In this document: positions 13,894 through 32,000 of the stretch, piece after piece
How positions within the stretch are numbered: position 1 is the first letter of the stretch
Layout: every line of letters starts with the position of its first letter
Assembly: GCF_000145295.1 (NCBI RefSeq)
Contig: NC_014408.1
Coordinates: 1,440,001-1,472,000, forward strand
Origin: Methanothermobacter marburgensis str. Marburg
GTDB taxonomy: Archaea; Methanobacteriota; Methanobacteria; Methanobacteriales; Methanothermobacteraceae
Reading direction: 5' to 3'
DNA: 32,000 bases
Made by a program: the position numbers and the translations under genes
Notes under the pieces: model-generated
What the model was told of the DNA's origin: nothing
Seen by the model: only the letters and a program-made list of their open reading frames with translations
Databases searched by the model: none

Positions 13894-15804
<1,911 letters not shown>

Positions 15805-15850: not shown

Positions 15851-16867
15851 ATGGTAACCTATTCAGAATCCGGTGTGGATATAGACCTGGAGGAGCTGAC
15901 CGTATCACGCTTAACCTCCCGGCTTAAGGGCACACTCAGATATTGTGACGTTATAAGCGGGGCCGGCCACTTCGCGGCCCTGGTCAGGATGGGTGATGTG
16001 GCCATAGCCATGAGCACCGACGGTGTCGGTAGCAAGATACTGGTCGCTGAGATGATGAGCCGGTACGACACCGTGGGGATTGACTGCATCGCGATGGTGG
16101 TAAACGACATACTATGTGTTGGCGCAAAGCCGGCGGCACTCGTTGACTACCTCGCAGTTGAAGAACCAGACCCTGATGTTGCTGATGAGATAGGTAAGGG
16201 CCTTGCAAGGGGTGCTGAAATCGCACAGGTGGCCATAATAGGTGGGGAGACAGCCTCCCTCCCAGGTATAATCAGAAACCTTGACCTTGCAGCCACAGGG
16301 ATCGGTTTTGTGGATGTGGACCGCATAATAACCGGTGAGAATGTGGGGGAGGGTGACGCTGTTATAGGCCTTGAAAGCAGCGGTATACACAGTAACGGCC
16401 TGAGCCTTGCCCGTAAGGTGTTCTTTGATGAGCTGAAACTCTCAGTGAACGATGAAATGCCGGGCTCCGCTAAAACCGTGGGCGAGGAACTCCTTGAACC
16501 CACAAGGATTTATGTGGATCCCATAATGAGGCTCCTTGAGTCAGGGGTGAGTGTCCATGGCCTTGCCCACATAACAGGAGGGGGCTTCGGAAACCTCAAG
16601 AGACTCAACAGGGACGTTGGATACCATCTTGATTCCCTGCCAGAACCACAGGAGATATTCAGGACCATCCACGAAGCAGGGGTTGATATAACAGAGATGT
16701 ACAGGGTTTTCAATATGGGTGTTGGCTTCTGTGCTGTTGTCAGCCATGATGACCTGGACGACGCCCTTGACGTCCTTGGTGACGGCGCCCACCATATCGG
16801 TAACGTAACACCCAGGAAAGCGGAGGTTGCCCTTAAAACTTACACCGGTGAATCAATAAAACTTTAG
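15851..16867 (+). CDS. purM: Phosphoribosylformylglycinamidine cyclo-ligase (AIR synthetase)
   Basis: '[10 protein letters not shown]', '[13 protein letters not shown]' and 'LAHITGGGF' are classical PurM motifs. 338 aa. Confidence 0.95.
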
Positions 16868-16877
16868 GAGGACTCTT

Positions 16878-17903
16878 ATGAGGATAAGTGCTGAAGAGGA
16901 AGTTAGAATCATAAAGGAAATACTCACCGCCATGGAGGTTCCAGAGGAGGTTTCAGAGATAGTGGCTGATGTTACCCTGGACGCGGACCTGAAGGGTTTC
17001 AGTTCACATGGAATCGGTCGTTTCCCCCAGTACGTTGAGGGGCTGCGATGTGGGACAATAAAGCCCCATGGTGACATAACCATTGAAAGGGAAACCCCCT
17101 CAACGGCCCTCATAAACGGTAACCACATGTTCGGACACTTTGTTGCCTGCAGGGCAATGGAACTTGCAATTGAAAAGGCCAGGGATACCGGCGTCGGGCT
17201 TGTTGGTGTCCATGACTCAAACCACTTTGGTGTTGCCGGATACTACTCGGACATGGCGGTCATGAACGACATGATAGGGGTTGTGATAGCAAATACAGAG
17301 CCTGCTGTGGCACCCATAGGTGGCAAAACACCCATCCTGGGAACAAACCCCGTGGCCATAGGGATCCCATCAAACAGGCACTATGTCTCGGTTGACATGG
17401 CAACCTCAGCATCCGCCAGGGGCAAACTCCTGGAGGCCGCCAGGAAGGGTGAGAGTATACCCGAAAACATAGCAATGGACGCCGATGGAAACCCCACAAC
17501 CGACCCTGAACTTGCCCTTAAGGGGTCCATACTCCCCTTCGGTGGGCATAAGGGTTATGCGCTTTCATTCATGATAGAGATCCTAGCAGGTCCCCTTGTG
17601 GGGGCTGCCTTTGGGGCTGCGGTGAAGGGAACCGCGAACCCCCGGGAGATGTGCACCAAGGGCGACCTCATGATGGCCATAGACCCCTCAAAGATGGTCG
17701 ACCTCCAGGAATTCAAATCCAGCGTGGATGAATTCATCGAGGAGGTTAAATCATCCGGGGACGTCCTCATACCCGGTGACATTGAGGCCATGAACATAAA
17801 GAGGGGGCGTGAAGAGGGAATAGAGGTGGATGAAAAGCTCCTTCAAAGGCTGAATGAAATATCAGATGAACTCGGCCTGGACCTCAAGATTAAGGGGTTA
17901 TGA
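16878..17903 (+). CDS. comC: Ldh_2-family (R)-2-hydroxyacid dehydrogenase; sulfolactate dehydrogenase ComC by context
   Basis: Malate/L-lactate dehydrogenase (Ldh_2) family features ('[10 protein letters not shown]', 'NHFGVAGYY', 'GGHKGYALS'). It sits immediately upstream of comD/comE and is coupled to them by an ATGA overlap. Confidence 0.8.
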
Positions 17904-18397
17904 AGTTGGATAGCAGCAGGGCTGTTTACGAGGGTATGAAGGAGGCGGGGATAGACTTCGCGGTCAGTGTCCCCTGTGTGAACCTCAGGTTCGTCCTTGA
18001 AATGGTGGACTCTGACCCGGAAATCAGGCACGTGCCTGTTACACGTGAGGAAGAGGGATTCGGTGTTGCAGCCGGCGCCTACATGGCCGGCAAGACCACA
18101 GCCATGCTGATGCAGAACTCAGGTCTCGGTAACTCCGTGAATGTCCTCGCATCACTCTACAGCCTCTACCATATCCCCATAACAATGATTGTAAGCCACA
18201 GGGGGACAAGGGGTGAGTTCATGGAGGCCCAGATCCCCATGGGAAGGGCCACGACCGATATACTTGATATCCTCAAAATACCCTACAGTACCCCTGAAAC
18301 ACCCTCAGAGGCAAGGGAATCCATAATGGAACTCACAGAACTTTCACTTAAAAGGAGGCATCCTGTGGCTGTGCTCCTTGAGGTTGCCTACTGGTGA
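17900..18397 (+). CDS. comD: Sulfopyruvate decarboxylase subunit alpha
   Basis: 165-aa TPP-enzyme N-terminal (pyrimidine-binding) module ('[19 protein letters not shown]', '[11 protein letters not shown]'). Its ATG overlaps the comC stop. Confidence 0.85.
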
Positions 18398-18401
18398 TAA
18401 C

Positions 18402-18944
18402 ATGCTTACACGAATTGAAGCCATAGAAAGAATTGTGGGCGTCCTTGATGATGAAATCGTGGTATGCAACCTGGGTTTCCCATCAAGGGAGCTCTACAGT
18501 ATCAAGGATTCGTCAAGACATTTCTACATGCTTGGATCCATGGGTATGGCCCCCTCCATTGGACTTGGCCTTGCCCTCTCACAGGATAGGAGGGTTGTGG
18601 TACTTGATGGTGATGGATCCATCCTCATGAACCTGGGGGGACTGGTAACAGCCGCTGCCCAGGCACCCAAAAACCTCGTCATAGTCCTCCTGGACAACAG
18701 GTGCTACGGAAGCACTGGTTCCCAGTGCACCTACTCAGATCTCATAGACCTGGGGGATGTTGCCGGGTCAATGGGATTCAATGTTATCAGATTCCACGAG
18801 GAACCTGACTTTAAGCGTGTCCTCCAGGAGGATGGGCCAGTTTTTGCCCATGTGCCTGTAAAACCTGGTAACGCGGATGTCCCTGTCATAGATTTAAGCC
18901 CTGAGGAGATAATTGAGAGGTTCATGGATGAGGTGAGATCCTAG
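18402..18944 (+). CDS. comE: Sulfopyruvate decarboxylase subunit beta
   Basis: TPP-binding motif '[15 protein letters not shown]...[12 protein letters not shown]...LLDN'. ATG 18402 is preferred over TTG 18378. Confidence 0.85.
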
Positions 18945-20710
18945 GACCTCCTCCCTGTGTATGTTGCGTAGAAACCATCTGTATCTGCATAAACCGTATG
19001 GAAACCGAATTCCTCGGCTATTTTTATTGTCCTCTTTATGTAATCCCTTCCCCATGCGGTTATGGCCTCTGCACACTCCATTGAATACCACCTGAACCTT
19101 GAGTAACCGTAGACCCCGTACATGGTGTTTGCAAGCCTCTTGAGGGCCTCCTGCTGTACATTGAGTATCTTTCGCTCCATGGGGTCATCTGAGCGCTTCA
19201 TCTCCCCCTTGATTCTGACCCTCTCAGAGAGTATCTCGCCTATAACCGAGGGTACAAAACCTGCTGGCTCCTTACGGAACCTGTAACCGTATTCCGGTGC
19301 AACGTGGCAGTCACAATCTTTCTCATCGGTGAGTGTGTCCGGGGATATGTTCTTTGAGATTATTATGCTGGGGTATAGGCTGCGGAAGTCGAACTGGACT
19401 ATGTTCTCATGGAGGCCCCTCTCAGGTTCCTTAACATACCCTCCAACGGCCCTGCGACCCCTTCTCTTTGAGAACTCCGAGTGTGATGGTTTGTTTGGTA
19501 CAAGTTCGCCGTACTGGTATGCCTTCCTTACAAGGAACCATTCGGCCTGCTGTCCGGTTGCCATGCGGGATATGTCAAAGAGGGGCTGGCCAACTATACG
19601 GGTGAGCTCCATGTTGAGGGGGAGAATCTTCTCTGCGATCCGGTAGGTTGCAACGACGTCATCAAGGGAGTACCTGAAGAGTTCATCCCTCAGCTCCTCC
19701 CGGTCCCAGTACTCCCAGAGCTTATCGCCTGGAAGGTCCAGCTTCTCCTCCCCGAAGAGTTCCTGGTAGACCCTCTCAAGTGTGTAGCGGTCAAGGTTCA
19801 TGTACCTCCTCATCACAGGGTAGAGGTCCACGTGCACCGTTCCCTTTATGGCTGTTGCGTTTGCAAATCCCCTCCTCATGGTCTTTATCCTTGAGCCATC
19901 CCATCCAAGGTCAAGTTCCACCCCAAGGATCTCGGCCCTCCTTGATAGGTAGGGGAAGTCGAAGTTGTCGGAGTTGTAGCCCACAAGGATGTCGGGTTTT
20001 TTCTCCCTGACGATTTCAGCGAACCTCTCAAGGATTGCCGCCTCATCCCCAACCCTTTCAACGAAGTCCAGGTGCTCACCCCTCGTTGATATCACCGATT
20101 CAACGCCCATGTTACCGGCAATTCCAACCATCACTATCTCATCATTCTCAGGGTCAGGCATCCCATGGGGGTTTCTCACCTCAATGTCAAAGCTGAGGAT
20201 GTCCAGCTGGGGGAAGCCAGAATCAGATGTTTGTATCCCGTCGGTTATCTCAATTATCCTCACATCATCTGATGTGATGGATGATGCCGACTCCGCCTCC
20301 ACGCCATTGAATTCTATCCCTGCCATTGGAACGATTGACCTGTCAATGAGGTACCTCCGGTAGAAGGGGATGTCATGTTCCCTTATATCCGCAACGGATT
20401 CAAGGTTCCTTATCCTATCCCTTAACTTCGGAACCTCCTGGGGGTGCCTGAATTCTATCCTTATAACCTCCACCGGTTTTCCAAGGTCCCTTCGCTCTGT
20501 GACCTCAAGTTTTTCCAGTCCCAGTTCAGCGAGGTCATCCAGGCACCTCTCTGTATCGATGGGGATTGCATAGATGTATGGCCTGAATGAACTGTCATAT
20601 GCGATGATTGGCTCATTTCCTGACTTGTCCTTACCAAAGAGCCTGATGACGGGCATCTCATCGACCGTTAGGTAGTCGATGTCAAGGAGCACCATGCTGT
20701 ATCTTTCCAT
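18941..20710 (-). CDS. polB1: Family B DNA polymerase, large N-terminal piece of a split PolB (exonuclease domain plus polymerase motifs A-C)
   Basis: Exo I 'LSFDIEV', Exo II '[11 protein letters not shown]', motif A '[10 protein letters not shown]', motif B '[13 protein letters not shown]', motif C 'VYADTDG'. The ORF stops 12 codons after motif C, so the thumb domain is absent. Confidence 0.9.
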
Positions 20711-20963
20711 GGAGTTTACTCTGTTGTGTGGGACTAATAAAATGTTCTAGGAATGAAGGGGTTATCCGTTTAACTGGCTTGCCAGACCAGTATGCCATAG
20801 TATCAAAAGATATTAAAAAATGTGAACACAGAGCAGTTGACTTGTAAAAACACCTGCAAAATCTCGACTTGAACAACTTCTAAAACAAAACGGAACAAGA
20901 AAAAAATCAGATAAAAACTATAGATCCCTTTCATGTCAAAATGTAATAAGACACCATTGAGTT

Positions 20964-21284
20964 AGAGTTTCTGTGAACAGACAATACATCCCATTACAAA
21001 TCGATAAAGATGTTAAGCCCGTGAAGAATTACAGTAAAGAACGTGAAAAATTACGTGATGTAAGCATTATCGCTTCCTCCTTTGGCAATAAACCATACGC
21101 TCCTGGTGGAGTGTAAGTACCGCAGATACAGACTCAAACAAAGACGTTATGTGATGAAATGCCAATTTATCACTGGGAAAATCATTCCAATGCCAATTTA
21201 AAGAAACACTCAATGCAATCTCATTTGCATTACAAAGAAAGAGATATTAACACTTCATGCATGCTTTGCATGGATTTTTTGTAA
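20964..21284 (+). pseudogene. Possible decayed ORF: about 107 codons open except for one TAA
   Basis: One frame reads '..VNRQYIPLQIDKDVKPVKNYSKEREKLRDVSIIASSFGNKPYAPGGV*VPQIQTQTKTLCDEMPIYHWENHSNANLKKHSMQSHLHYKERDINTSCMLCMDFL*'. A single stop at 21114 in about 35% GC DNA is fewer than chance would predict. No family recognised. Confidence 0.25.
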
Positions 21285-21430
21285 GTTTTTAATGAAAATC
21301 ATGAACATGGGATGTTAGAGATCTAAGAGAAAATGTAAGTGACGAAGATCTTATCTAATAAATTTTAATATTAAATTTGTGTTATATAATGGGATTTATG
21401 TTTTTCGGTCCTCAATTGGATAATAATATT

Positions 21431-21438
21431 TTTATATG
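21431..21438 (+). promoter_or_regulatory. TATA-box-like element (tttatatg) for the large island gene
   Basis: It sits in an A/T-rich context about 46 nt upstream of ATG 21477. GGAGGTG (21464-21470) is the ribosome binding site. Confidence 0.4.
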
Positions 21439-21476
21439 ATTTTATAATCAACTTTATTTTGCTGGAGGTGTTTTTT

Positions 21477-23996
21477 ATGAGAAAGTTTCTGTTCTTTATG
21501 ATGGCTGTCTTGTGTTTCTATCTTATAGGTAATTCTTTCGCTCTAAGTTTATCATATGATGAGGTTTGTGACGCCTCTAAGATGATAGGAAACTATACAG
21601 CATCACAGAACCGTATACCATCAATGGTTGTGGTTAATGGGAAGAATATAACATCAGACAATTATTTGTATGCGGCGTCCTCCACTGTCCTGAACCTTAA
21701 TCAGGGCAAAAGGACCGGCATATCATTACCTGATTATAATCCTCCTACTAATCCGAGTGGGGCGGCAACAGGAACACTCTACAAGACATACACAACAGGG
21801 ACAGGATACCTCCAAGCAGCCCAGAACATCAAAAACTTCATGGAATCCAATGGCAGGTCGCCGAACTATGCCAACACAGCCATTGGACAAGTGCGCTACG
21901 AAAGCCTGATCTACGCCTATGCAAGGATAATAAACTTCTACAACAGCACAGGCAAACTACCAGACCACATTACAATACAACAAATAACAAAAAAAGAAGG
22001 AACCATCACAAGGCCACGGGCCGACTACACCTACAAAATCGAAGGTTACACCACCTATTTCATGGATAAGAGCACAGGTTCCATCCAATCATGGCAATGG
22101 GACCTTGGAGACAACACAACAAGCACTGAAAGGAACCCAACACACACCTACAAAGCAGGAACATACACCGTAACCTTAACCGTCCGGGGTTATGGTGTCA
22201 CATCCACTAGGACGATGATGTTGGAGGTTATGCTTGCGACAATTCATGTTAATTCAACAGCAGTAACGTTTTTGGGACAAACTTTAAACTTAACCTTTAA
22301 AATGCCTCTTAACAATACAGCCAAATGGATTAGTATAGGGGCTATGGCTACAGGCCCATTCAATGAGACAGTATTCCTTGTGGAGGATGGTGTAGCATAT
22401 AAACTGGCAGAGCTAACCAACCCATTCTATCAGGTGAACAGGCAAAGTCAAAGGGAAATTGTCTGGACCGCCACCGCAGGACTGAACAGACTCATAGAAA
22501 TCTGCACAAAACTCGGACTCGACGAACTCGAAACAATAAATGAATACCTCAACAACTTCAACCTAACAGAACAAGAAAAGAACTTCATCCTAACAAACCA
22601 TGGAAGATGCATAGACATCCTCCAAGTCAGCATAGAATATCCTGGCGAAGAAAGTGTCACAATAGCCAACATAACATTCCCAGGGAACCGATCAACAAGG
22701 ACGCTCCTACTACTCTACACAAACGGCTACTACATACACCCGCCAGGAGAAACCGGGCCCAACATAATAATAAATGACACCCTAACCTGGGAAGCCAGCA
22801 ACTATGACGCCATTATAACCTACACCATAGCCACCAAAAAAATAACAAACCAGACACTACAATACTGGCTAAACAAAGAATACCCTCCAGGACCATTAAA
22901 AGCAGCCTACGGACTATTCCTCGCAGGCCTCGAAACAATATACCTCCACGACACAATCGCAGACCAGGCAGCCGCAAAATACAACATAACATGGACAAGA
23001 ACCAGGCCAGCGATGGTCTCAGCAGGAGACCACAGCCCAGCGACATGGATAAGCCTGGAATGCAACCACAACATGGGAGTGAAAGCCAACGGAACAACAC
23101 AAAACCTGAAAGCATTCAACTACGCAAGGACATCCACCATAAACCCAATAGAATACTATGTTATGGAAGCCTTATTCCCAGGATCAGACCCCACAACCGC
23201 CCCAATAACAGGAATAGGCCAGAAACTACTCAATGGAGAGCCACTAGACATCCTCGAAACCGAAAATTATACGCTAATCACTGACAACCAAGGAAGATAC
23301 ATCATAATAGACCATAAAACAGGAATGGTCAGAGACATAATCTACAATCTTATGGGAGCATACTGCTACTACCACCAACAAACAGAATGGGCCCAAGAAC
23401 TTGGCCGAACCATAATGTCCTCTGAAAGGTTAAAGTCACTCTTGGATGGTAATGGCACAGTAAATCTTGAAGGTTTAAGGGATAGTGTGGGAAAAGCCTT
23501 CATGGGTCTTATAGTTTCAATGCGACTCGCCCTACATAACCCCATGACCTTTGTTGAAATCATCAGTTATGGCTTGGTGGGTCAGGGCCTCATAGGAGTT
23601 AACATAGCAGCATACGCAACAACAATAGCCTACATAAACTCCAAACTCAACAACATTACAGGCAGCATCAAAGAATTTATCGTGGAACATCAAACATACA
23701 TTTCAAATGATTTTGTTGAATATATGCTTCCAGCAGTAATATATGTATTATCGAAATCTGGTGGTGGGGTAATACTTCAGCCAGTTGGTTTGTGTATGGC
23801 TATAGGCAATGGGATACTCGATTTTAGGGATCATTATCTCCCAGAGGAATATTGGAAATATATTGCATATCATCGTACATGGGCTCATGGTTATGAGCTT
23901 AGGGCTTATGTTGGTGAGGATCATTGTATACACTATATTGAAATACCGAAGGACCCTGATGGTACTCTACGGTGGGATGAAGCAGTATATATTTAA
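21477..23996 (+). CDS. Large secreted or cell-wall-associated protein: signal peptide, two pseudomurein-binding-like repeats, a PKD domain, an unknown region of about 400 aa, and a hydrophobic C-terminal region
   Basis: ATG 21477 lies 7 nt after GGAGGTG, and the TTG at 21459 is unlikely. Signal-like 'MRKFLFFMMAVLCFYLIGNSFA'. PMBR-like segments 'YDEVCDASKMIGNYTASQNRIPSMVVVNGKNITSDNYLYAASSTVLNL' and 'YLQAAQNIKNFMESNGRSPNYANTAIGQVRYESLIYAYARIINFY'. PKD signature 'WQWDLGDNTTSTERNPTHTYKAGTYTVTLTV' (about 22020-22235). At least 18 N-x-S/T sequons counted by eye. Hydrophobic segments lie near the C-terminus. Confidence 0.85.
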   Translation: MRKFLFFMMAVLCFYLIGNSFALSLSYDEVCDASKMIGNYTASQNRIPSMVVVNGKNITSDNYLYAASSTVLNLNQGKRTGISLPDYNPPTNPSGAATGTLYKTYTTGTGYLQAAQNIKNFMESNGRSPNYANTAIGQVRYESLIYAYARIINFYNSTGKLPDHITIQQITKKEGTITRPRADYTYKIEGYTTYFMDKSTGSIQSWQWDLGDNTTSTERNPTHTYKAGTYTVTLTVRGYGVTSTRTMMLEVMLATIHVNSTAVTFLGQTLNLTFKMPLNNTAKWISIGAMATGPFNETVFLVEDGVAYKLAELTNPFYQVNRQSQREIVWTATAGLNRLIEICTKLGLDELETINEYLNNFNLTEQEKNFILTNHGRCIDILQVSIEYPGEESVTIANITFPGNRSTRTLLLLYTNGYYIHPPGETGPNIIINDTLTWEASNYDAIITYTIATKKITNQTLQYWLNKEYPPGPLKAAYGLFLAGLETIYLHDTIADQAAAKYNITWTRTRPAMVSAGDHSPATWISLECNHNMGVKANGTTQNLKAFNYARTSTINPIEYYVMEALFPGSDPTTAPITGIGQKLLNGEPLDILETENYTLITDNQGRYIIIDHKTGMVRDIIYNLMGAYCYYHQQTEWAQELGRTIMSSERLKSLLDGNGTVNLEGLRDSVGKAFMGLIVSMRLALHNPMTFVEIISYGLVGQGLIGVNIAAYATTIAYINSKLNNITGSIKEFIVEHQTYISNDFVEYMLPAVIYVLSKSGGGVILQPVGLCMAIGNGILDFRDHYLPEEYWKYIAYHRTWAHGYELRAYVGEDHCIHYIEIPKDPDGTLRWDEAVYI

Positions 23997-24127
23997 GGTG
24001 GTGGTTTGTTTGGATTGATAAGCTTTATGTGCTGATTATCTAGGTGTTGGTTTCAGTGGCAGATCTACTAAGTTGTGTTTGGTTTTGGCTTTGAGGTGAT
24101 TTGTGGTGGGGTGATTGGAGAAAAAGG

Positions 24128-24517
24128 ATGGGTGGTTCTATGTTAGGTTTAAGAATAATCATAGGCTGTATACTTTTTATGTTAGTATTTATAGGTTGTA
24201 TATTACTGATATTAGGAGGTTTAGGAGAACGGGAAAAGAGGTTGGATTTTCTCTTATATGGGGTTATAGGTGGTGTGTTGCTTGCCATTGGATCTTTTTT
24301 CCTTGGGGGGGATGTGGGGGCTTTCACATTCCTCATAATCTCTTTCATCTTCTTAAATAAGATAGGGAAACTTAAGATGGAATGGTTAGCCAAATCCTCC
24401 ATAATACTAGCATACATCTTTGCTTTAACAATGATAATCTTAGACAGAATATTAATAGGTATTTTTGCTCTGATAGTGGCAACCCTTTTAATCAAAGAAT
24501 CCAAGACTTCAGTATGA
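24128..24517 (+). CDS. Small polytopic membrane protein (129 aa, about 4 TM helices)
   Basis: ATG 24128 lies 7 nt after GGAG (24117-24120). Four long hydrophobic stretches, e.g. 'LRIIIGCILFMLVFIGCILLILGG'. The overlapping antisense 163-aa ORF is low-complexity and rejected. Confidence 0.6.
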   Translation: MGGSMLGLRIIIGCILFMLVFIGCILLILGGLGEREKRLDFLLYGVIGGVLLAIGSFFLGGDVGAFTFLIISFIFLNKIGKLKMEWLAKSSIILAYIFALTMIILDRILIGIFALIVATLLIKESKTSV

Positions 24518-24597
24518 GGATCCCATTGCATACAACATGGAATGCCGAAGAACCCTGATGGTACTCTACGGTGGGGATGAAGCAGTATATTGTTAGT
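24512..24597 (+). repeat. Second, degenerate copy of the last ~85 nt of the large gene (tail copy B)
   Basis: gaggatcccattgcatacaac...accctgatggtactctacggtgggGatgaagcagtatat aligns with 23916-23996. Identical runs of 24 and 14 nt are separated by one extra G. Weaker similarity continues about 35 nt past the stop (23997-24035 versus 24598-24635). Confidence 0.8.
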
Positions 24598-24611
24598 GAG
24601 GAGGGTCTTTT

Positions 24612-24848
24612 TTGGATTATGAATCTTTGTTTGGGAAGGTTTATTTTCTTATTTGTGTTGATATTATTTTATATTTTGTTGGGATTAGGCATTTTAATGG
24701 TTTGGTTCCAATAGCGGCCCTTTTAGCCGTGTTTATTTATTTCCTTTTATTCTGGTTGCACTTCTTCGTGGATGAGTTGAAGGGAAAAAAAGAAGAAATA
24801 AGATGGATGATGGCCATAATCCTTGCATTAATTATATTCGGAACATAA
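24612..24848 (+). CDS. Small hydrophobic protein (78 aa, 2-3 TM helices), TTG start
   Basis: TTG 24612 lies 6 nt after GAGGAGGG (24598-24605). The product is hydrophobic ('VPIAALLAVFIYFLLFWLHFF', 'MMAIILALIIFG'). A 32-codon ATG ORF in another frame (24619) is an alternative, so the call is tentative. Confidence 0.4.
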   Translation: MDYESLFGKVYFLICVDIILYFVGIRHFNGLVPIAALLAVFIYFLLFWLHFFVDELKGKKEEIRWMMAIILALIIFGT

Positions 24849-24925
24849 AGAGGAGTTATCATGTTGCCAAGATGAAGGGGGATGTTAAGGTTTTTTCATT
24901 TAATAGACCATAAAACAGGAATATT

Positions 24926-25546
24926 ATGGGAGCATACTACCACCAACAAACAGAACTAGCCAAAAAACTTGGGAATGAAATTTTGAATTGGAGTGGTTGG
25001 TGGAAATTTATTGGTGTTGCTGGTGTTTCAACAGCCGAGGCTGCTGTGCTTGAACTGGGTGTGCTTTCAGCCCCAGAAACCCTTGGTTTGAGTTTGGCTG
25101 TTACCCTGGCCGCATATATTATCATGGAGCATCCTGAATGGCTACCATACATCAAAGACGCCGCAATAATGACACTACTAACACCAGGTGGCATACCTCT
25201 TGCTATGGCGTATGCATGGTTGAGTAAGGATGCTACATACTTTGAATTACTTTTAAAGAAGATAACGGATCCTAATGAAGTCTTGGATAATGTGATAAAA
25301 GAGCTTCAGAATAGTTTAGATCCAAATAGTTTAATAGGACCCGATGGGAAAAGAGGAGATATTCTCGGGTTTTTCCGTGATAGATATGTGAGGTTCTATA
25401 ACTCTCTTAAGAGGGGAGATATTGTGGATGTTGTGAAATATGGTATTGAGCTTATTGCTGGAGGAATAACGGTTGGTTCGTGGGTGGTGAGTGGCTTTAA
25501 GGAATTTGTGAAGGCCGTTCTTGAAAAAGAAACTGGAGGAGATTAA
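24926..25546 (+). CDS. Orphan C-terminal fragment 1: begins with the junction motif of the large gene (MGAYYHQQTELAKKLG) and then diverges; hydrophobic plus helical, 206 aa
   Basis: DNA at 24899-24972 is homologous to 23303-23404 of the large gene (identical runs aatagaccataaaacaggaat, tatgggagcatac, taccaccaacaaacagaa). The ORF starts at the Met conserved in 'NLMGAYCYYHQQTE'. The remainder has no visible similarity to the main C-terminus. Confidence 0.6.
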   Translation: MGAYYHQQTELAKKLGNEILNWSGWWKFIGVAGVSTAEAAVLELGVLSAPETLGLSLAVTLAAYIIMEHPEWLPYIKDAAIMTLLTPGGIPLAMAYAWLSKDATYFELLLKKITDPNEVLDNVIKELQNSLDPNSLIGPDGKRGDILGFFRDRYVRFYNSLKRGDIVDVVKYGIELIAGGITVGSWVVSGFKEFVKAVLEKETGGD

Positions 25547-25547
25547 A

Positions 25548-26171
25548 TTGGATTTAAATGCAGTCATATTATTTATATTTCTATTAAGTGTAGTCTTCAT
25601 TTTCATAGAATATTCTCTAGGAAAAATCGCGTTGGGATTAATTGAAAAAGAAGAGTATGAAAAAGCCATAAATGTCTATAGGCTCCTCATATCAAAAACT
25701 GAGAAAGATTTATTCAACATAGGATTCTGTTTCACCCAAAACAAAGAATACCAAAAAGCTTTAAAATATTATGACAAGGCATTAAAAATAAATCCGGAAT
25801 ATGCAGAAGCATGGAACAACAAAGGAATAATACTAAAAGAACTTAAAAAATACAAAAAAGCCCTAAAATGCTACAACAAAGCCCTAGAAATAAACCCTGA
25901 ACTTATAGAAGCATGGAACAACAAAGGAACAACCCTCCAGGAGCTGGGCAAATATGAAGAAGCACTAGAATGCTACAACAAAGCCCTAGAAATAAACCCA
26001 AAAAGCATTGAAACATTAACTTACAAGGGAATAACATTATCCAAAATCGGCAAATACAAAAAAGCCCTAAAATGCTTCGACAAAGCACTCAAAATAAACC
26101 CAAAAAACAAACTATTACACAAAACCAAAGCAGCACTTCACAAAAAACTTAAAAACCAAGAAAAAGCCTGA
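25548..26171 (+). CDS. TPR-repeat protein with an N-terminal TM anchor (about 207 aa, about 5 TPRs)
   Basis: TTG 25548 lies 7 nt after GGAGGA (25535-25540) and 1 nt after the stop of fragment 1. 'LNAVILFIFLLSVVFIFI' is a TM helix, followed by repeated 34-aa units such as 'AEAWNNKGIILKELKKYKKALKCYNKALEINP'. Confidence 0.85.
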   Translation: MDLNAVILFIFLLSVVFIFIEYSLGKIALGLIEKEEYEKAINVYRLLISKTEKDLFNIGFCFTQNKEYQKALKYYDKALKINPEYAEAWNNKGIILKELKKYKKALKCYNKALEINPELIEAWNNKGTTLQELGKYEEALECYNKALEINPKSIETLTYKGITLSKIGKYKKALKCFDKALKINPKNKLLHKTKAALHKKLKNQEKA

Positions 26172-26195
26172 TGTTACAACCTCGAAAATGTCGCA

Positions 26196-26639
26196 ATGAT
26201 GACCATACTACCAACACCAGGTGGTCTGCCAACATTCATCACCTACACATTACTAACAGGAGACACACAACCAATACAAAACTATCTTGAAATACTATCA
26301 AGACAGTCAGACGGATGGACCCGTAGAATGGTAAATGAGTATAGAGAAGCCGTAGATACTCTAAGGGCGGTTAGCAGTGGTAGTGTTGGTGGCGATCCCG
26401 ACGATATAGAAAGGGCTATAAATAATTTAGGTAAATTCATGAGGGATGAATGGAAGCTGTTCAAGGAGGCTTTAAAGGATGGGGATGTTGTGGAGGCCAT
26501 AAAACATGGAAGCACTATAATAGGCACCGGGATGGGCGTTGCGGCCCTGTTAACATATGAGAATCGCGAGGCGATAGAGGCATGCATACTAGGATTCAAA
26601 AACTACCTAGAAAAGAAGTTGAGAGAGGCTGGAGCATGA
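26196..26639 (+). CDS. Orphan C-terminal fragment 2: divergent paralogue of the C-terminal half of fragment 1 (147 aa)
   Basis: 'MMTILPTPGGLPTFITYTLLTGD' matches 'IMTLLTPGGIPLAMAYAWLSKD', 'FKEALKDGDVVEAIKHGSTIIGTGMGVAALL' matches 'FYNSLKRGDIVDVVKYGIELIAGGITVGSWV', and 'GFKNYLEKKLREAG' matches 'GFKEFVKAVLEKETG'. No obvious ribosome binding site, so expression is uncertain. Confidence 0.5.
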   Translation: MMTILPTPGGLPTFITYTLLTGDTQPIQNYLEILSRQSDGWTRRMVNEYREAVDTLRAVSSGSVGGDPDDIERAINNLGKFMRDEWKLFKEALKDGDVVEAIKHGSTIIGTGMGVAALLTYENREAIEACILGFKNYLEKKLREAGA

Positions 26640-27796
26640 ACCCCCTTAAGAAGATAAAGGATTGGATGGCCAGCGGAAAAGCTGGATGGCACCTCAGCGG
26701 GGGCCGATCAAGCCTAAAACAGGGAAAATACAAAGAAGCTCTTAAAGAATTCAGGAAAGCCCTCAAGGCGAGTCCAAACGACCCGGAAATCTTGCACTAT
26801 AATGCAATGACACTACTAAAACTCAAAAGACCAGAGAAAGCCTTAGAATGTTATGAAAAAATCCTCAAAAACAATCCAAAACTAGCAGAAGCATGGAACA
26901 ACAAAGGAGTAGTCCTTAAAGAACTTAAGAGATATGATGAGGCATTGGAATGCTATGAAAGGGCACTACAAATAGATCCAGAAGACGATGGAACATGGAA
27001 CAACAAAGGAGCGCTCCTTGACACAATCGGTAAACCTGAAAAAGCAATAGAATGTTATGAAAAAGCCTTAGAAATAAACCAAAAAAATGCAAAAGCATGG
27101 TATAATAAAGGTAACGGATTACGTAGTCTTGGAAAATATGAGGAGGCATTGGAATGCTATGAAAAAGCATTACAGATAAACGCAGAATTCGTAGAGGCAT
27201 GGTACAACAAAGCACTAATTCTTGAAGAACTTAAGAGATATGATGAGGCATTGGAATGCTATGAAAGGGCACTACAAATAGATCCAGAAGACGATGGAAC
27301 ATGGAACAACAAAGGAGCGCTCCTTGACACAATCGGTAAACCTGAAAAAGCAATAGAATGTTATGAAAAAGCCTTAGAAATAAACCAAAAAAATGCAAAA
27401 GCATGGAACAACAAAGGAGTAGTCCTTGAAGAACTTAAGAGATATGATGAGGCATTGGAATGCTATGAAAAAGCCTTAGAAATAAACCTAGAAAACGACG
27501 AAACATGGGCTAACAAGGGAGTACTCCTCAGGAAACTTGGAAAATATGAGGAGGCACTGGAATGTTTTGAAAAAGCCCTTGAAATAAACCCAGAATTCGC
27601 AGATGCATGGAAATGGAAAGGAATAATCCTGGAAGACCTCAAAAAACCAGAGGAAGCCCTGAAATGCCACAAGCAAGCCCTCAAACTAAACCCCCCAAAA
27701 CAAAACACTACAAAAACTTGGAAAACACCAAAAAAGTCCTACAAAAAAAGCCCTGAAAGAACTCCAAATGAAAGGCCAAAGTCACCCTTAGGGTAA
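26636..27796 (+). CDS. TPR-repeat protein (about 386 aa, about 10 TPRs) with a Lys/Pro-rich tail
   Basis: ATG 26636 overlaps the stop of fragment 2 (gcATGA) and follows GGCTGGAG. It contains repeated 'AWNNKG..L..L.RY.EALECYEKALEINP' units. The tail is 'NPPKQNTTKTWKTPKKSYKKSPERTPNERPKSPLG'. Confidence 0.9.
   Translation: MNPLKKIKDWMASGKAGWHLSGGRSSLKQGKYKEALKEFRKALKASPNDPEILHYNAMTLLKLKRPEKALECYEKILKNNPKLAEAWNNKGVVLKELKRYDEALECYERALQIDPEDDGTWNNKGALLDTIGKPEKAIECYEKALEINQKNAKAWYNKGNGLRSLGKYEEALECYEKALQINAEFVEAWYNKALILEELKRYDEALECYERALQIDPEDDGTWNNKGALLDTIGKPEKAIECYEKALEINQKNAKAWNNKGVVLEELKRYDEALECYEKALEINLENDETWANKGVLLRKLGKYEEALECFEKALEINPEFADAWKWKGIILEDLKKPEEALKCHKQALKLNPPKQNTTKTWKTPKKSYKKSPERTPNERPKSPLG
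26921..27406 (+). repeat. Perfect 180-bp direct duplication inside the TPR gene (26921-27100 = 27227-27406, offset 306 bp = 3 TPR units)
   Basis: The two 180-nt strings (gaacttaagagatatgatgaggc...aaaaatgcaaaagcatgg) are identical on base-by-base reading. In addition, 26891-26960 recurs at 27401-27470 with one mismatch. Confidence 0.95.
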
Positions 27797-28299
27797 CAGC
27801 ACCTTTGAAGGCTTAAAGAACAGCGCGAAAAAAGCTTTTATGAGTCTTATAGCTTCAATGCAACTCCCCCCACACAACCCCATAACCTTTATACTCGGTT
27901 ATGGCTTGGTAGGCCACCAAGTTAAAATGGCAGCATATGCAACAACAATAGCCTACATAAACTCCAAACAGGCAGCATCAAAGAATTTATCGTGGAACAT
28001 CAAACATACATTCCATGGGATGTTGTAGAAGGTATAATAACTATTGGTGGTGTTAAAGCTCTTGCTACTAGTGTGGAACTCAATCTAGGTTTTATAGGTG
28101 TAATTATAGGTGAAGGTGATTTGATTCTTAGGATAAGGGACCATTACCTACCTAGGGAATACTGGAAGTATCGTATCATCCAGGGTCATTCTATGGTTAT
28201 GAGGTTAGGGCTTATGTTGGTGAGGATCATTGTATACACTATATTGAAATACCGAAGAACCCTGATGTAGTTTGAGGTGGGATGATGCTCGATACATAG
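27792..28299 (+). pseudogene. Decayed third copy of the C-terminal ~530 nt of the large gene (tail copy C), broken by frameshifting indels
   Basis: It aligns with 23465-23996 and includes identical runs of 31 nt (gcaacaacaatagcctacataaactccaaac), 44 nt (caggcagcatcaaag...catacatt) and 53 nt (23899-23951 = 28205-28257). A 13-nt deletion after 'aactccaaa' and a net 4-nt deletion after the 'EYWKY' codons split it over three frames (ORFs 27840..28028 and 27992..28270). Confidence 0.8.
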
Positions 28300-28656
28300 G
28301 CTTCTTTATTATATTGCGGTTATTTTGTCATCTTTCACGGTTCCAGTAACTTTGCTGGCCATTAGATCATATGCAGTGATGCAGGCACAGGTCAGATTAT
28401 TGTTAGTGTTTCTTTTAATGATAAATTTTGTACTCCTATTATCTTAGGTCTAAGAGAGCGTTTAAATGAGAAGAAAAAGGGGCAATTGAAACCCTCACGT
28501 TTATAATATTTTTACTACTTATAATTGTTCTTCCAGGTGCTCCTGCTTAACAAAACACGGGAGACATGTAAATGAATTATCATAACTAACATGATGTGCA
28601 ATTATCATGATGCTGTAATATTACGAAATAACCGGAATAAGCATGACACTTTATGT

Positions 28657-29664
28657 TCACTGGTTCTCCTCAGCAGCTGATTCTCCAAGCCGGTAGGCCT
28701 CAAGGGCCGCGTAGGCAAGCCCCAGGACCAGTGGCCCCACTATGAACCCGGCAACACCCCATACGACCGGGCCCCCAAGGAAACCCACAAGGAATATCAT
28801 GGGGTGTATATCAGCATACTTACCTGAAAGCTTTGGCCGGAGGTATATGTCGATTGTGCTGAGGAATATCCCGAATATGAGGACCAGAACCCCCCTGAGG
28901 ATATTCCCGGTCACCAAGTCATAGATGGCAAGGGGGGTGTAGGCAGCCCATGGACCTATAACCGGTATGAGCTGAAATATCCCGGTTATTATACCGAGGA
29001 CTATGGCGTAGGGGTAGCCCAGGAGGTGAAAGCCGAGCCCCGCCATGATGCCTATGAGGAGCGCTGTGAGGAAGTGGCCATAGAATATGCTCATGAGCAC
29101 ACGTTCTGTCTCAGAGGCCATCCTCCTCATGAAGGGCTTGGCTTCAGTGGGTATGATGCCCCTTATATATGAAAGGAGCCTTTCACCATCCCTTGCAAAG
29201 TAGAATGTTGATGAGAGGAATATGAAGAGCTGCAGGGCTATCATGGGGACTGACTGTATCACATCAATCACATAGTTGATGGATCCTCTCAGTATGTCGG
29301 TTAAAATACCCCTCAAAGCCCCCAGGGTGCCCCCGGAACTCTGGAGCTGTCCCGGAAGGTAGGGGATATCAAAGCCCCTTGCAAGGGTTATGAGTGAGGG
29401 GGTGGAGTTTATGAGGGAATCCACGGTAAAAACCACTATACCAATAAGGGGCATTATAACAACGATCATGGCGATGATTATTGAGACCGAGAGGTAGGGT
29501 ATCCTCTCATTTATCCTTAAAGCCACCGGCCTTACAATGTAGGCGAACACAGCCCCCAGGAAGAGCATGGTCCAGATGGGATAGATTACAATGGCCGATA
29601 GAAGTATCAGTGCAAGTACAAGGAATGAAGCAGATGTGATGGTGCCCCTGAGCCTCTCAATCAT
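28657..29664 (-). CDS. AI-2E family transporter (PerM/UPF0118-type permease)
   Basis: 335-aa polytopic membrane protein with the family's typical layout and the C-terminal 'RPKL.G....HP....L..LGG....G..G...GP' region. Confidence 0.8.
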   Translation of the reverse strand: MIERLRGTITSASFLVLALILLSAIVIYPIWTMLFLGAVFAYIVRPVALRINERIPYLSVSIIIAMIVVIMPLIGIVVFTVDSLINSTPSLITLARGFDIPYLPGQLQSSGGTLGALRGILTDILRGSINYVIDVIQSVPMIALQLFIFLSSTFYFARDGERLLSYIRGIIPTEAKPFMRRMASETERVLMSIFYGHFLTALLIGIMAGLGFHLLGYPYAIVLGIITGIFQLIPVIGPWAAYTPLAIYDLVTGNILRGVLVLIFGIFLSTIDIYLRPKLSGKYADIHPMIFLVGFLGGPVVWGVAGFIVGPLVLGLAYAALEAYRLGESAAEENQ

Positions 29665-29676
29665 GAAACCACCACA

Positions 29677-30471
29677 TTACCAGCTGATTCTCCGGCCGGC
29701 AGCGTCCCTCCTGTACCTGCCAAATTCACCGACACCCCGTAATTCATGGTCCCAGAAGACAGGACCCTCGGCACAGACCCTCCACCCTGTCCCGTCGACG
29801 CAGCACTGGCCGCAGATACCCACGGCACACTTCATGTACCTCTCAAGGGAAAACTGGGTCGGTATCCCCCTCTCATCAAGCACCGCCTTCACATGGAACA
29901 TCATGGGTTCTGGACCGCACACAGCCGCCATGTCATATTCTCCATCCATTTCAGAAAGGCGTTCATGTGCAAATCCCTGAAACCCGCAGGTTCCATCATC
30001 TGTACATGTATGGATATTAACACCTGCATTCTCAAGCCTCTCTGTGAAGAGAAGCTCATCTGATGTCCTTGCAGCCACAACCGCATCCACATTCATGCCC
30101 CGTGCCACAGCCTCCTCTGCAAGGGCTGCAAGGGGTGCCATACCTATCCCGCCGCCCACAAGGATCAGGTTTCTTCCCATGAGTTCAAAACCCCTTCCAT
30201 AGGGTCCCCTGACCCCCAGGAGGTCTCCCTCGTCCAGTTCATGGACCGCTGATGTGAATTCACCAACCCTCCTTATGGATATGCCGATCTCAGACCTCTT
30301 ATGGTCAATGAGTGAGACTGACATGGGTTTCTCGTCGCTGAAATTCCAGACCATGACGAACTGTCCGGGCACTATTTCCCTCCTGAAGTCCCAGTCAAAT
30401 ATGAATGTCCTGACGGTCTCAGATTCCTCAACTATACCCTTAATTTCAAGAAGCTCTGGAACATTTCCCAT
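29677..30471 (-). CDS. pyrK: Dihydroorotate dehydrogenase electron-transfer subunit (FAD / 2Fe-2S)
   Basis: FNR-like fold with a C-terminal cluster motif 'CAVGICGQCCVDG...RVCAEGPVF'. ATG 30471 sits just after the pyrD stop with GAGGGGGTG upstream, and the longer ORF to 30513 is unlikely. Confidence 0.9.
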   Translation of the reverse strand: MGNVPELLEIKGIVEESETVRTFIFDWDFRREIVPGQFVMVWNFSDEKPMSVSLIDHKRSEIGISIRRVGEFTSAVHELDEGDLLGVRGPYGRGFELMGRNLILVGGGIGMAPLAALAEEAVARGMNVDAVVAARTSDELLFTERLENAGVNIHTCTDDGTCGFQGFAHERLSEMDGEYDMAAVCGPEPMMFHVKAVLDERGIPTQFSLERYMKCAVGICGQCCVDGTGWRVCAEGPVFWDHELRGVGEFGRYRRDAAGRRISW

Positions 30472-30475
30472 GAAA

Positions 30476-31384
30476 TCACACCCCCTCATGGGCCAGTCCA
30501 ACCATCTCATCAACCGATGAGAAGCCCTCCTCGATCATGAACCTTTCAAGGCCCCTGCATATCCCCATGAAGATCTCGGGGCCATCATACATTATGGCTG
30601 TACCCACCTGAACGGCCACTGCACCTGCAAAGAGAAATTCAACCGCGTCTCTGAAGTCCCTGACGCCACCGGCGCCAATTATTGGGATCTCAACACTGCG
30701 GTAAACATCATAGACGCACCTTACAGCCACGGGTTTTATGGCGGGACCAGACATTCCCCCAAAGGCATTGGAGAGTACAGGTTTTGCTGTTTTTATATCG
30801 ATCTTCATCCCGGGACCAAGGGAGTTTATGAGGGTCAGGGCATCTGAACCTGCATCCTCTGCGCTTTTTGCTATCTCAACGATGTCTGTAACGTTTGGTG
30901 TGAGCTTGGTGGATACCGGCACGCCCACAGCATCCTTTACAGCCGATACCACCCTGAATGTCAGCCCGGCATCCTGTCCTATGGAAGCCCCGCAACCCGC
31001 CATGGCGTGGGGACAGGACACGTTGAGTTCGATCATGTCCACGTAGTCCTCCACTGAAGCCGCCACCCTGGCAAATTCCTCCGGTGAAGACCCGTAGATG
31101 GATGCTATGAGGGGCACATCATCATCCACCCCCCTGAGCTCCTCTTTAAATGCCTCAACTCCAGGATTTGATAGGCCTATGGCATTTATGATCCCGCCGG
31201 TAACCTCCACTGTGGTGGGATTTTTATAGCCCTCATTGGGTTCCAGTGAAAAGGATTTGGTTACAACGGCCCCTGCACCTGCACGGTAGACCCTGTTGAG
31301 GGATGAAGCCATGCTCCCCATAACTCCCGCAGCAAGCATGGTTGGATTCCTGAGCTCAATATTACATATCCTGGTCCTCAGCAT
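30476..31384 (-). CDS. pyrD: Dihydroorotate dehydrogenase catalytic subunit (class 1B)
   Basis: 'NPTMLAAGV', 'ELNVSCPH', 'GGMSGPAIKP' and 'IIGAGGV' are canonical PyrD motifs. ATG 31384 follows GGTG, and GTG 31393 is an alternative start. Confidence 0.95.
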   Translation of the reverse strand: MLRTRICNIELRNPTMLAAGVMGSMASSLNRVYRAGAGAVVTKSFSLEPNEGYKNPTTVEVTGGIINAIGLSNPGVEAFKEELRGVDDDVPLIASIYGSSPEEFARVAASVEDYVDMIELNVSCPHAMAGCGASIGQDAGLTFRVVSAVKDAVGVPVSTKLTPNVTDIVEIAKSAEDAGSDALTLINSLGPGMKIDIKTAKPVLSNAFGGMSGPAIKPVAVRCVYDVYRSVEIPIIGAGGVRDFRDAVEFLFAGAVAVQVGTAIMYDGPEIFMGICRGLERFMIEEGFSSVDEMVGLAHEGV

Positions 31385-31435
31385 GAAAAACACCTTCTAA
31401 ATATATTTATAGTCACCACCTATAGATGTACCCCT

Positions 31436-32000
31436 ATGAAGTGTTATCTCACAGGCTGCGTTGCTGGTTTTGTTGCCTTCAGTGAAGATCTGAAAGTCAT
31501 AGATTATGAAACTTTCCCGCTGGATGATGTGGCCAGCAGGCTCAGCGAATCACAGATGGGAGGTATCACACCTGAGGAGAGGAGGATACTTGAAAGGCTC
31601 CTTGGTGAATACGATGAGGTTGTTGTTGAGGCTGAACCATCCCCTGCATACTCTGAATTTGGTAAAATCAGGTTTGAAATGCCATCAGCCGCCGGAGTCC
31701 ATCTGAGGGAGAACCTCGATGAGATACTGGAATCAATCACTGATATCCCCCCATCCAGATTCATACACAGCGCCCTCATCTCGGCAACCCGGGAAAAACT
31801 GAGGGAGTCCCTCAGGGAATCTGACAGGTTCCTCATACAGGCCATAAATGCCCTTGATGAACTGGACGAGGAGATCGGGAAACTGATAGAGAGGCTGAGG
31901 GAGTGGTATTCCCTTCACTTCCCTGAACTGGATGGTGTGAGGAGCCATGAGCAGTACGTTGAGCTGGTTGCCAGGTACGGTGACCGGGACAGGATACTTG
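31436..32000 (+). CDS. nop5: Nop5 (Nop56/58 homologue, C/D box sRNP core protein), 5-prime partial, runs off the window
   Basis: Not in the supplied ORF track, because it has no stop in the window. My translation from ATG 31436: 'MKCYLTGCVAGFVAFSEDLKVIDYETFP...SDRFLIQAINALDELDEEIGKLIERLREWYSLHFPELDGV...'. 'LREWYSLHFPEL' is the Nop-domain signature region. The listed antisense 113-aa ORF is shadow. Confidence 0.9.
   Translation, partial: MKCYLTGCVAGFVAFSEDLKVIDYETFPLDDVASRLSESQMGGITPEERRILERLLGEYDEVVVEAEPSPAYSEFGKIRFEMPSAAGVHLRENLDEILESITDIPPSRFIHSALISATREKLRESLRESDRFLIQAINALDELDEEIGKLIERLREWYSLHFPELDGVRSHEQYVELVARYGDRDRIL

Follow-up and report, generated by a model that had tools for sequence, protein, structure and literature searches.

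Methanothermobacter marburgensis str. Marburg carries, behind the gene for a large surface protein, two short open reading frames (ORFs), fragment 1 and fragment 2, each followed directly by a gene for a tetratricopeptide repeat (TPR) protein. We analyzed them in a 32,000-nucleotide stretch of the genome (contig NC_014408.1, positions 1,440,001 to 1,472,000), referred to below as the window, whose own numbering is used throughout; all genes and cassettes described in it lie on the forward strand. The surface protein gene, here called the main gene (21477 to 23996), encodes a secreted protein of 839 amino acids (aa) comprising a signal peptide, pseudomurein-binding repeats, a PKD domain, a conserved body of ~370 aa, and a C-terminal (CT) domain, CT-A. 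The ORF as such extends from 21459 to 23996 (845 aa) and opens with a TTG codon at 21459, the likely start being the ATG at 21477, which has GGAGGTG 6 nt before it. Pfam searches matched the main protein to the pseudomurein-binding repeat PF09373 (PMBR) in two stretches (E = 1.1e-21; 76.2 bits versus a cutoff of 24.9) and to PKD_4 (E = 1.3e-12), the latter in the conserved N-terminal part. The PMBR match by itself points to a member of the Methanobacteriales. The hydrophobic N terminus was classed as a signal peptide from hydropathy, and the ~370-aa body has no known fold. An AlphaFold2 model of the whole protein from a 10-sequence alignment had a pLDDT of 42.7, with the PKD domain alone confident. 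Main-protein orthologues (P0005 to P0011) were found in Methanothermobacter only and range from 832 to 1,025 aa; the nearest database proteins are those of Methanothermobacter sp. THM-2 (99%) and KEPCO-1.

The first of the two fragments is an ORF of 206 aa (24926 to 25546) within what we term orphan cassette 1 (24901 to 25546), which consists of a relic of the 3' end of the body, a junction sequence (J1), a hydrophobic N-terminal half, and a tip of type CT-B. It ends in TAA at 25544 to 25546, and 1 nt later the TTG at 25548, with GGAGGA at 25535 to 25540, opens the gene for TPR1 (25548 to 26171). TPR1 is a protein of 207 aa with four or five repeats (TPR_1, E = 1e-49, in four stretches) and a single N-terminal hydrophobic anchor (aa 1 to 33; Kyte-Doolittle score, 2.68). 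Fragment 2, an ORF of 147 aa (26196 to 26639) in orphan cassette 2 (26181 to 26639), holds a tip of type CT-C that is cut at a second junction (J2) and overlaps the start of the TPR2 gene (ATG at 26636) in the sequence ATGA. TPR2 (26636 to 27796) is a soluble protein of 386 aa with 10 repeats (TPR_1, E = 1e-111, in 10 stretches) and has no signal or anchor. The TPR motifs are backed by DNA repeats with a period of 102 nt. Within the TPR2 gene, a recent internal duplication of 306 nt (three repeats; within 26834 to 27417) is 89% identical, and the length of TPR2 varies between strains from 301 to 437 aa. The spacing or overlap between each fragment and its TPR gene is as a first-pass annotation, made by a model from the letters alone, had described it. 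Two further observations in that annotation also held: fragment 2 is a diverged relative of the C-terminal half of fragment 1 (residues 81 to 199; 30% identity; pairwise E = 9e-13), and neither fragment belongs to a recognizable family, with no match in Pfam, NCBIfam, or PADLOC. An AlphaFold2 model of fragment 1, from a 9-sequence alignment, was all helical, with a pLDDT of 41.5.

We then compared the fragments with the main gene. Fragment 1 opens with MGAYYHQQTELAKKLG, which matches LMGAYCYYHQQTEWAQELG at aa 632 to 654 of the 845-aa main ORF. DNA homology to the main gene begins 25 nt before the fragment 1 ATG, where 24901 to 24922 are identical to 23305 to 23326; past 24922, deletions of 22 nt and 6 nt set fragment 1 apart from the main gene. 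Each fragment ORF opens at an internal Met codon that is conserved, and a usable Shine-Dalgarno sequence is missing from both, fragment 1 having AGGA only and fragment 2 having none. Clear Shine-Dalgarno sequences, with 5 to 7 nt of AGGAGGTGATC at a spacing of 6 to 7 nt, were found for the main gene, for TPR1 (AGGAG), and for TM78 (AGGAGG, 7 nt upstream), a small membrane protein gene described below. That of a second such gene, TM138, depends on the start chosen, and that of TPR2 is weak (GGAG, 1 nt from the ATG). The translational coupling proposed in the first-pass annotation fits the main gene and its TPR gene in the active configuration but not the orphan ORFs, which have no Shine-Dalgarno sequence of their own.

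Two junctions and exchangeable C termini

The first junction, GAYCYYHQQTEWAQELG at 23355 to 23408, is the motif after which the C termini of related proteins diverge. J1 (GAYCYYHQQTEW) has the consensus GAYC[YF][YS]H[QL]QTEWA, and its columns G633 to G649 are invariant among proteins with unrelated C termini. When the profile of CT-A was compared with those of CT-B, CT-C, and CT-E, J1 was the sole common region (hhalign; 22 columns, probability 97.6). The domain in the expressed position in the window, CT-A (23409 to 23996; 195 aa), is 100% identical to the CT of P0006 from strain EMTCatA1 (locus L006), where the body is 71 to 78% identical to that in the window. In P0009 (L002, a Methanothermobacter metagenome-assembled genome) and P0010 (L003, a metagenome contig), the same body is fused at J1 to the sequence of fragment 1, that is, to CT-B. 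In P0011 (L004) and in the main gene of L010, it is fused to a full-length version of fragment 2, CT-C; full-length versions of CT-C are P0002, P0003, and P0011. Because relatives fuse the same body to different C termini, J1 separates a conserved body from exchangeable C termini. The earlier suggestion that the fragments are independent small effector genes does not survive these fusions, since CT-B and CT-C are true C termini in P0009, P0010, P0011, and L010. A stand-alone toxin-antitoxin pair was also rejected as a candidate.

The second junction, J2 (EHPEWLPYIKDAAIMTLLTPGG; 25130 to 25197), lies inside the CT, at a PGG motif. The active CT of L010 matches fragment 1 from J1 to PGG (97.7% identity) and fragment 2 after PGG (96.4% identity). 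Over the part after PGG, fragment 1 and the CT-C of L010 are 31% identical, and the two fragments in the window are ~30% identical to each other. CT-B and CT-C have in common a weakly hydrophobic N-terminal half (WWKFIGVAGVSTAEAA...EHPEWLPYI); they are set apart only by their last ~115 aa, a helical tip. DNA alignment and blastn breakpoints also placed J2. The N-terminal half is helical and rich in Gly and Ala, and the hydrophobicity of the CTs is marginal for stable membrane helices (Kyte-Doolittle scores of 1.5 to 1.6, with Glu residues inside).

Since the CT of L010 consists of the N-terminal half of fragment 1 plus fragment 2, the window corresponds to an insertion of ~1 kb, made up of a CT-B tip and TPR1, in a CT-C cassette. 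Fragment 2 is truncated because the CT-B tip and TPR1, entering at J2, displaced the CT-C tip and TPR2. The composition of the L010 CT contradicts the earlier idea that one fragment-TPR unit was duplicated locally and then diverged. The main gene of L002 terminates in CT-B, and relative to that locus, 1.5 kb (CT-A, TM138, a relic, and TM78) is inserted in the window exactly at J1: positions 21394 to 23404 are 93.8% identical to L002, and the match resumes at 24920 to 27496 (94.1%). L008 has, behind a different main gene, an orphan array that matches window positions 23192 to 27289 with 96.1% identity. Within that array are 160 nt from the 3' end of the body, which would serve as a recombination handle. 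On these sequence comparisons, the fragments are orphan displaced 3' ends, or C-terminal cassettes, of the upstream PMBR/PKD gene, and recombination at two conserved junctions has stacked the two fragment-TPR pairs, which are alternative alleles.

We looked across 13 loci, namely, the window and L001 to L012, to determine which genes follow which CT types; body, junction, CT types, and downstream genes were located by tblastn in the window and L001 to L011 and by ORF listing in L012. TPR1 comes directly after CT-B in the window, L002, L003, L008, and L009, and in L001 a 67 to 70% identical CT-B has a 51% identical TPR1 behind it. After CT-C, whether full length, truncated at J2, or down to a 27-aa relic, TPR2 follows with the ATGA overlap in the window, L002 to L008, L010, and L011. 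A third TPR type follows CT-E (L005; 266 aa) and CT-F (P0256/L012; 504 aa), and these two TPR proteins have related N termini (MLFTGFKKRSLL and MIFKWIKRRSLI) and no signal or anchor. CT-A and CT-D are unrelated to the CT-B/C/E/F family and have small membrane proteins as partners: every CT-A cassette is followed by a protein of 78 to 138 aa with two to four membrane helices, and CT-D (L004) is followed by TM173. A TPR-repeat query found no TPR genes elsewhere in the window or in L001 to L011. Chance adjacency of abundant TPR genes was rejected as an explanation.

The first-pass annotation had regarded each fragment and its TPR gene as a linked module and had proposed a survey of their co-occurrence. 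The linkage was borne out: the module recurs in all related loci and with four divergent CT types (B, C, E, and F), and every tip-bearing cassette of this family has a type-matched TPR gene next to it. The sole family member without a TPR neighbor, P0004 (L001, 10271 to 10567), is also without a variable tip. P0004 consists of the CT-B/C N-terminal half, which breaks off exactly at J2, where unrelated sequence is joined to it, beside a CobN-like fragment. Most partner genes have kept their full length, also where the CT ahead of them is truncated, and the block consisting of CT-B tip, TPR1, CT-C tip, and TPR2 is 92 to 98% identical across L002, L003, L008, and L009.

The CT family is a very rare one, ten members having been found among 5.8 billion proteins, all from Methanothermobacter and all cassettes or full-length fusions. 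A metagenome scan yielded four CT-family loci, and a scan of a genome collection, which used PMBR-region patterns, recovered one locus. A HMMER profile search of 1.84 billion representatives used a 730-position profile that included PKD, its length reflecting the treatment of short rows as fragments by HMMER; PKD matches dominated the results, the useful ones being P0176 and P0256. Taken together, we regard the cassette architecture, the junctions, the recombination, and the linkage of CT type to partner type as close to certain.

The rest of the array and its island

Between the main gene and cassette 1 lie two small membrane protein genes. TM138 (24101 to 24517), a protein of about four helices by hydropathy, is a candidate partner of CT-A and follows the same CT-A in L006, L008, and L011; Pfam and further family scans gave no family match for it. 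Behind it, 67 nt (24530 to 24596) remain from the 3' end of an older CT-A cassette, a relic identified by direct repeats (D8 and D14) with 23939 to 24011 at 76 to 92% identity. In tblastn searches, CT-A residues 172 to 194 gave matches at the equivalent site in L006, L008, and L011. TM78 (24612 to 24848), an intact two-helix membrane protein by hydropathy, is the partner of the relic cassette, and its paralogues follow CT-A cassettes in L001, L006, L007, L008, and L011. The presence of a CT-A relic between intact TM138 and TM78 genes points to an earlier displacement that left only the partner gene. Orphan cassette 3 (27792 to 28266), at the far end of the array, is a degraded copy of CT-A in three frames (tblastn, 47 to 73%) with no partner gene after it; its DNA repeats (D5, D6, D9, and D10) are 80 to 97% identical to 23467 to 23961.

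The last ~55 aa of CT-A (RxxYLPxEYWKY...GEDHCIHYIEIPKxPDGxLRW; 23832 to 23996) are near-invariant across CT-A variants, and the ~40-aa hydrophobic segment ahead of this tail varies between them. In other strains, the same tail (a membrane helix followed by RDKYVPRKYWKY...GRDHCIHYVEY) ends an ORF with a Peptidase_C39 domain that lies upstream of the main gene. The loci used in this comparison were window positions 23832 to 23996, L006 positions 6368 to 7039, and L003 positions 5461 to 6030. A tail common to CT-A and the C39 ORF points to a mobile Cys/His module.

Three other loci held further arrangements of this kind. In L008, a 91-kb bioreactor contig, a block consisting of J1, a CT-A variant (CT-A'), a small membrane protein gene, a body relic, J1, CT-C, and TPR2 occurs twice (1179 to 3180 and 10534 to 12535), ~9.3 kb apart. 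The two copies flank a copy of the array in the window, and either a large duplication in tandem or an artifact of assembly accounts for the doubling. L002 has a smaller, frameshifted paralogue of the 3' part of the body (15286 to 16235) that ends in a junction-like GGACYHNTHPT and may belong to another, more distant family organized in the same way. Downstream of CT-F and its TPR gene, L012 encodes a 136-aa Gly/Ala-rich ("glycine-zipper"-like) protein and two small membrane proteins (11363 to 12483), which may be a further cassette type.

The whole system sits in a low-GC hypervariable island (20777 to 28617; GC content of 37 to 42% versus ~51% in the flanks). The flanks (13707 to 20776 and 28618 to 32000) are 96 to 97% identical to L004, and the island differs in content, length, and orientation. 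The flank on one side carries PolB, and that on the opposite side carries a transporter of the AI-2E family with PyrK/PyrD. In L004, the island (9552 to 15836) is 6.3 kb long and inverted relative to the flanks; the main protein there is 37 to 57% identical to that in the window and ends in CT-C, followed by TPR2, CT-D, and TM173. Other strains have the system in different chromosomal neighborhoods. A 26-nt imperfect inverted repeat (21196 to 21221 and 28394 to 28419; 77% complementary) brackets the island in the window. A scan of viral contigs for the CT family gave no match and thus no sign that the system is virus borne. Rfam and tRNA scans of the window were empty.

A proposed toxin/immunity function and its alternatives

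The first-pass annotation saw in the fragment-TPR pairs the look of toxin-immunity modules, and the overall organization does match that of such cassettes. The C termini vary behind a conserved junction, a downstream partner co-varies with them, and there are orphan cassettes with exchange, features that define polymorphic toxin systems at the genome level. By analogy, we lean slightly toward a toxin/immunity function for the system, and on balance we favor a reading in which the locus is an array of orphan cassettes belonging to a polymorphic, toxin-like surface protein system in Methanothermobacter. The Sec-secreted main protein would dock on pseudomurein through its PMBR, with an exchangeable CT after J1. 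Homologous recombination at J1 or J2 brings a new tip and its partner into the expressed position and pushes the old ones downstream; fragment 1 with TPR1 is a CT-B cassette displaced at J1, and fragment 2 with TPR2 is a CT-C tip displaced at J2. The CTs are envisaged as membrane-active or membrane-translocating toxins delivered to neighboring pseudomurein-walled cells, the N-terminal half acting as a module for insertion into, or entry across, the neighbor's membrane and the tip acting as the specificity or toxic module. The TPR solenoids may bind and neutralize the cognate tip, and the small membrane proteins may do likewise for CT-A. Orphan tips would be silent spares, whereas partner genes with their own ribosome-binding sites would stay expressed and protect against the toxins of neighbors. 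That partner genes behind truncated CTs are mostly full length fits such retained immunity. If all of this applies, the locus might be the first polymorphic toxin system (for contact- or wall-dependent competition) of pseudomurein-walled methanogens, with a PMBR-targeted exoprotein, a new family of membrane-entering helical toxins, TPR-neutralized tips, and two-tier switching at J1 and J2, a proposal that we make tentatively.

A number of observations weigh against toxicity. The CTs had no meaningful match to known toxin, pore-former, or enzyme families in Pfam, NCBIfam, or PADLOC, also at permissive E values, and a PDB sequence search with a profile that included PKD columns returned only PKD structures. 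With pLDDT values as low as those given above for fragment 1 and the main protein, the models lend no direct support to a toxic activity. TPR1 is membrane anchored, whereas TPR2 and the CT-E and CT-F TPR proteins would be cytoplasmic, so a common neutralization of related toxins is not obvious. The hydrophobic helices of the CTs could simply hold a resident surface protein in the membrane, the C39-peptidase-domain ORF likewise has a CT-A-like tail at its end, and no delivery machinery is evident. The counts behind the linkage hold many orthologous copies, the truly divergent CT/TPR pairs numbering ~5. Finally, TPR2 copies in L003, L007, L008, and L010 are broken after 57 aa, and the TPR2 tail in the window (27680 to 27796) is frameshifted relative to the conserved ...KKAKKALKEL ending in L002, L003, and L010; such decay of some orphan TPR genes weakens the argument for selection on immunity.

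These points have led us to consider non-toxic roles. In one, which we judge fairly unlikely, the system would serve kin or self recognition or polymorphic anchoring: the CT helices would anchor the protein in the producer's own membrane, the tip and partner would set strain identity or assembly, and orphan cassettes would allow identity switching. The variable membrane regions of Proteus IdsD/IdsE offer an analogy. Several moderately hydrophobic helices in the CTs would suit such a role, as would the lack of toxin homology, the position of the variable part of CT-A as a hydrophobic segment between conserved parts with membrane proteins as partners, and the recurrence of its tail (membrane helix plus basic segment) on an unrelated C39-domain ORF, in the manner of a generic anchor. 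However, each cassette carries a complete, separately translated partner gene, and intact partner genes behind truncated CTs fit protection better than they fit identity display; moreover, the Kyte-Doolittle scores and internal Glu residues make for marginal hydrophobicity, and CT-C, CT-E, and CT-F have soluble TPR partners. In a second and less probable role, the TPR proteins would be dedicated chaperones, or export or assembly factors, that keep a hydrophobic or amphipathic CT soluble before or during secretion, whether or not that CT is a toxin. TPR class II chaperones of type III secretion hold hydrophobic translocators in a comparable way. The tight gene order (1-nt spacing or ATGA overlap right after the CT end), the helical and partly hydrophobic nature of the CTs, the cytoplasmic location of TPR2 and of the CT-E and CT-F TPR proteins, where a chaperone would act, and the decay of some TPR genes behind mere CT remnants, as if useless without a client, all agree with chaperones. 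TPR1 is membrane anchored, however, and behind tips that are silent or truncated, TPR1 and most copies of TPR2 are still full length. The TPR type also co-varies with the variable tip rather than with the conserved hydrophobic half most in need of chaperoning, and CT-A and CT-D use membrane proteins instead.

Two other accounts fare worse, and even their combined probability is small. That the array is functionless debris of past rearrangements in a recombination-prone island, with TPR adjacency devoid of functional meaning, seems very unlikely to us. Cassette 3 and the TPR2 tail do contain frameshifts, the fragments have no translation signals, and TPR repeat numbers are unstable; against debris stand the strict linkage of CT type to partner type for four divergent CT types in several genomic contexts, the conservation across four loci of the block with both tips and both TPR genes, the open frames of fragment 1, TPR1, and fragment 2, and the occurrence of the same cassettes in the expressed position in other strains. 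We give still less credence to a pair of stand-alone genes for small effectors, each translationally coupled to the gene for a TPR binder, that arose by local tandem duplication and divergence, even though both ORFs are open and adjoin TPR genes, their C-terminal halves are homologous, and a gene caller annotated the fragment 1 orthologue (P0001) as a hypothetical protein. Fragment 1 has the main-gene junction and upstream relic DNA with deletions, fragment 2 is the remainder of a cassette truncated at J2 whose N-terminal half is now attached to fragment 1, and neither ORF has a ribosome-binding site. Both sequences are genuine C termini of proteins of 832 to 1,025 aa elsewhere, and 10 of the 10 homologues in the protein search were cassettes or full-length fusions.

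Antagonism and kin discrimination are almost uncharted in archaea, especially in methanogens, and the locus is a concrete, testable candidate in Methanothermobacter. This genus dominates thermophilic biogas and power-to-methane reactors, where strain replacement is of practical weight. If the toxin/immunity reading is correct, the system would add a new pseudomurein-binding delivery scaffold, a new toxin family that combines a modular entry part with a variable tip, and TPR solenoids as cognate immunity proteins. If the system is not toxic, a surface protein with a strain-specific, exchangeable C terminus and a matching partner would be a rare archaeal candidate for self-recognition. The nested exchange at two junctions is a clean natural example of array growth, and the locus is of interest for archaeal interference competition and for the strain dynamics of Methanothermobacter.

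Comparison with known systems

The closest organizational parallels are the orphan cdiA-CT/cdiI and rhs-CT/rhsI modules found in contact-dependent growth inhibition (CDI) and Rhs systems, which likewise involve a large exported protein, a conserved pre-toxin junction, and unrelated, exchangeable C termini. CDI/Rhs orphan toxins start at the pre-toxin motif without initiation signals, their immunity genes stay expressed, and incoming pairs displace resident ones (PMC9086364; PMC3967940). Here, too, the downstream partner gene changes with the CT, cassettes are common to divergent main genes, and displaced cassettes start at the junction, have no translation starts, and keep upstream homology for recombination. 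CdiA-CT is made up of an entry domain and a toxic domain (PMC9086364), to which the conserved N-terminal module and the variable, partner-linked C-terminal module of the CTs correspond. Despite this likeness, the locus does not belong to the CDI or Rhs families. Unlike CDI and Rhs systems, the present one belongs to an archaeon with a pseudomurein wall and no outer membrane, and its junction motif (GAYCYYHQQTEW) is neither the VENN motif of CDI nor the PxxxxDPxGL of Rhs toxins. TPS, FHA, VENN, CdiB, YD-repeat, and PAAR/type VI secretion elements were absent, Pfam giving only PMBR and PKD in the main protein, and there were no RHS/YD Pfam matches at E values of ≤0.01. The CTs also differ in having no known toxin fold, and their toxicity is putative. 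Likewise distinctive are the partners, which are long consensus-like TPR solenoids or small membrane proteins, and the second, internal junction, J2, which provides for nested displacement.

A weakly hydrophobic helical domain next to a small membrane protein of two to four helices (CT-A with TM78 or TM138) also recalls the pore-forming CdiA-CT(EC93)/CdiI pair and pore-forming colicins, as an analogy only for a possible mode of action. The immunity proteins of both pore-forming CdiA-CT(EC93) and colicins are membrane proteins. The TPR partners of the CT-B and CT-C cassettes are not typical of pore-former immunity. The pore-forming activity itself has been described for CdiA-CT(EC93) (PMC9086364). 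As for the wall-binding part, the main protein shares with MTH719 and PeiW/PeiP the PF09373 repeat that targets the pseudomurein wall, and pseudomurein-binding (PMB) domains supplied externally to cells attach to pseudomurein (PMC3210951). MTH719 and PeiW/PeiP are, respectively, an S-layer protein and phage endoisopeptidases and have neither a polymorphic C terminus nor a cassette array (PMC3210951).

VARTIG of the Thermococcales is the nearest described archaeal analogue. It, too, is an archaeal hypervariable locus with a large secreted Ig-fold protein, a recombining C terminus, and variable downstream genes; its function is unknown, and an organization like that of polymorphic toxin systems has been noted (PMC8416519). 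The hypervariable part of VARTIG is an Ig (CARDB) domain in an arCOG07710 protein, and VARTIG occurs in Thermococcales only (PMC8416519). By contrast, the variable part here is helical and partly hydrophobic and comes with a sharp junction, orphan cassettes, and TPR or membrane protein partners; Pfam found no Ig or CARDB match in it, PKD being the only Ig-fold domain. The VARTIG paper makes no mention of Methanothermobacter, pseudomurein, or TPR (PMC8416519). A description of the present system was not found in the literature covered, outside which lay a 2019 mBio survey of archaeal polymorphic toxins. Set beside all these systems, and judged from sequence, what appears to be new here is the scaffold, the junction, the CT family, the type of partner, and the nested displacement at two junctions.

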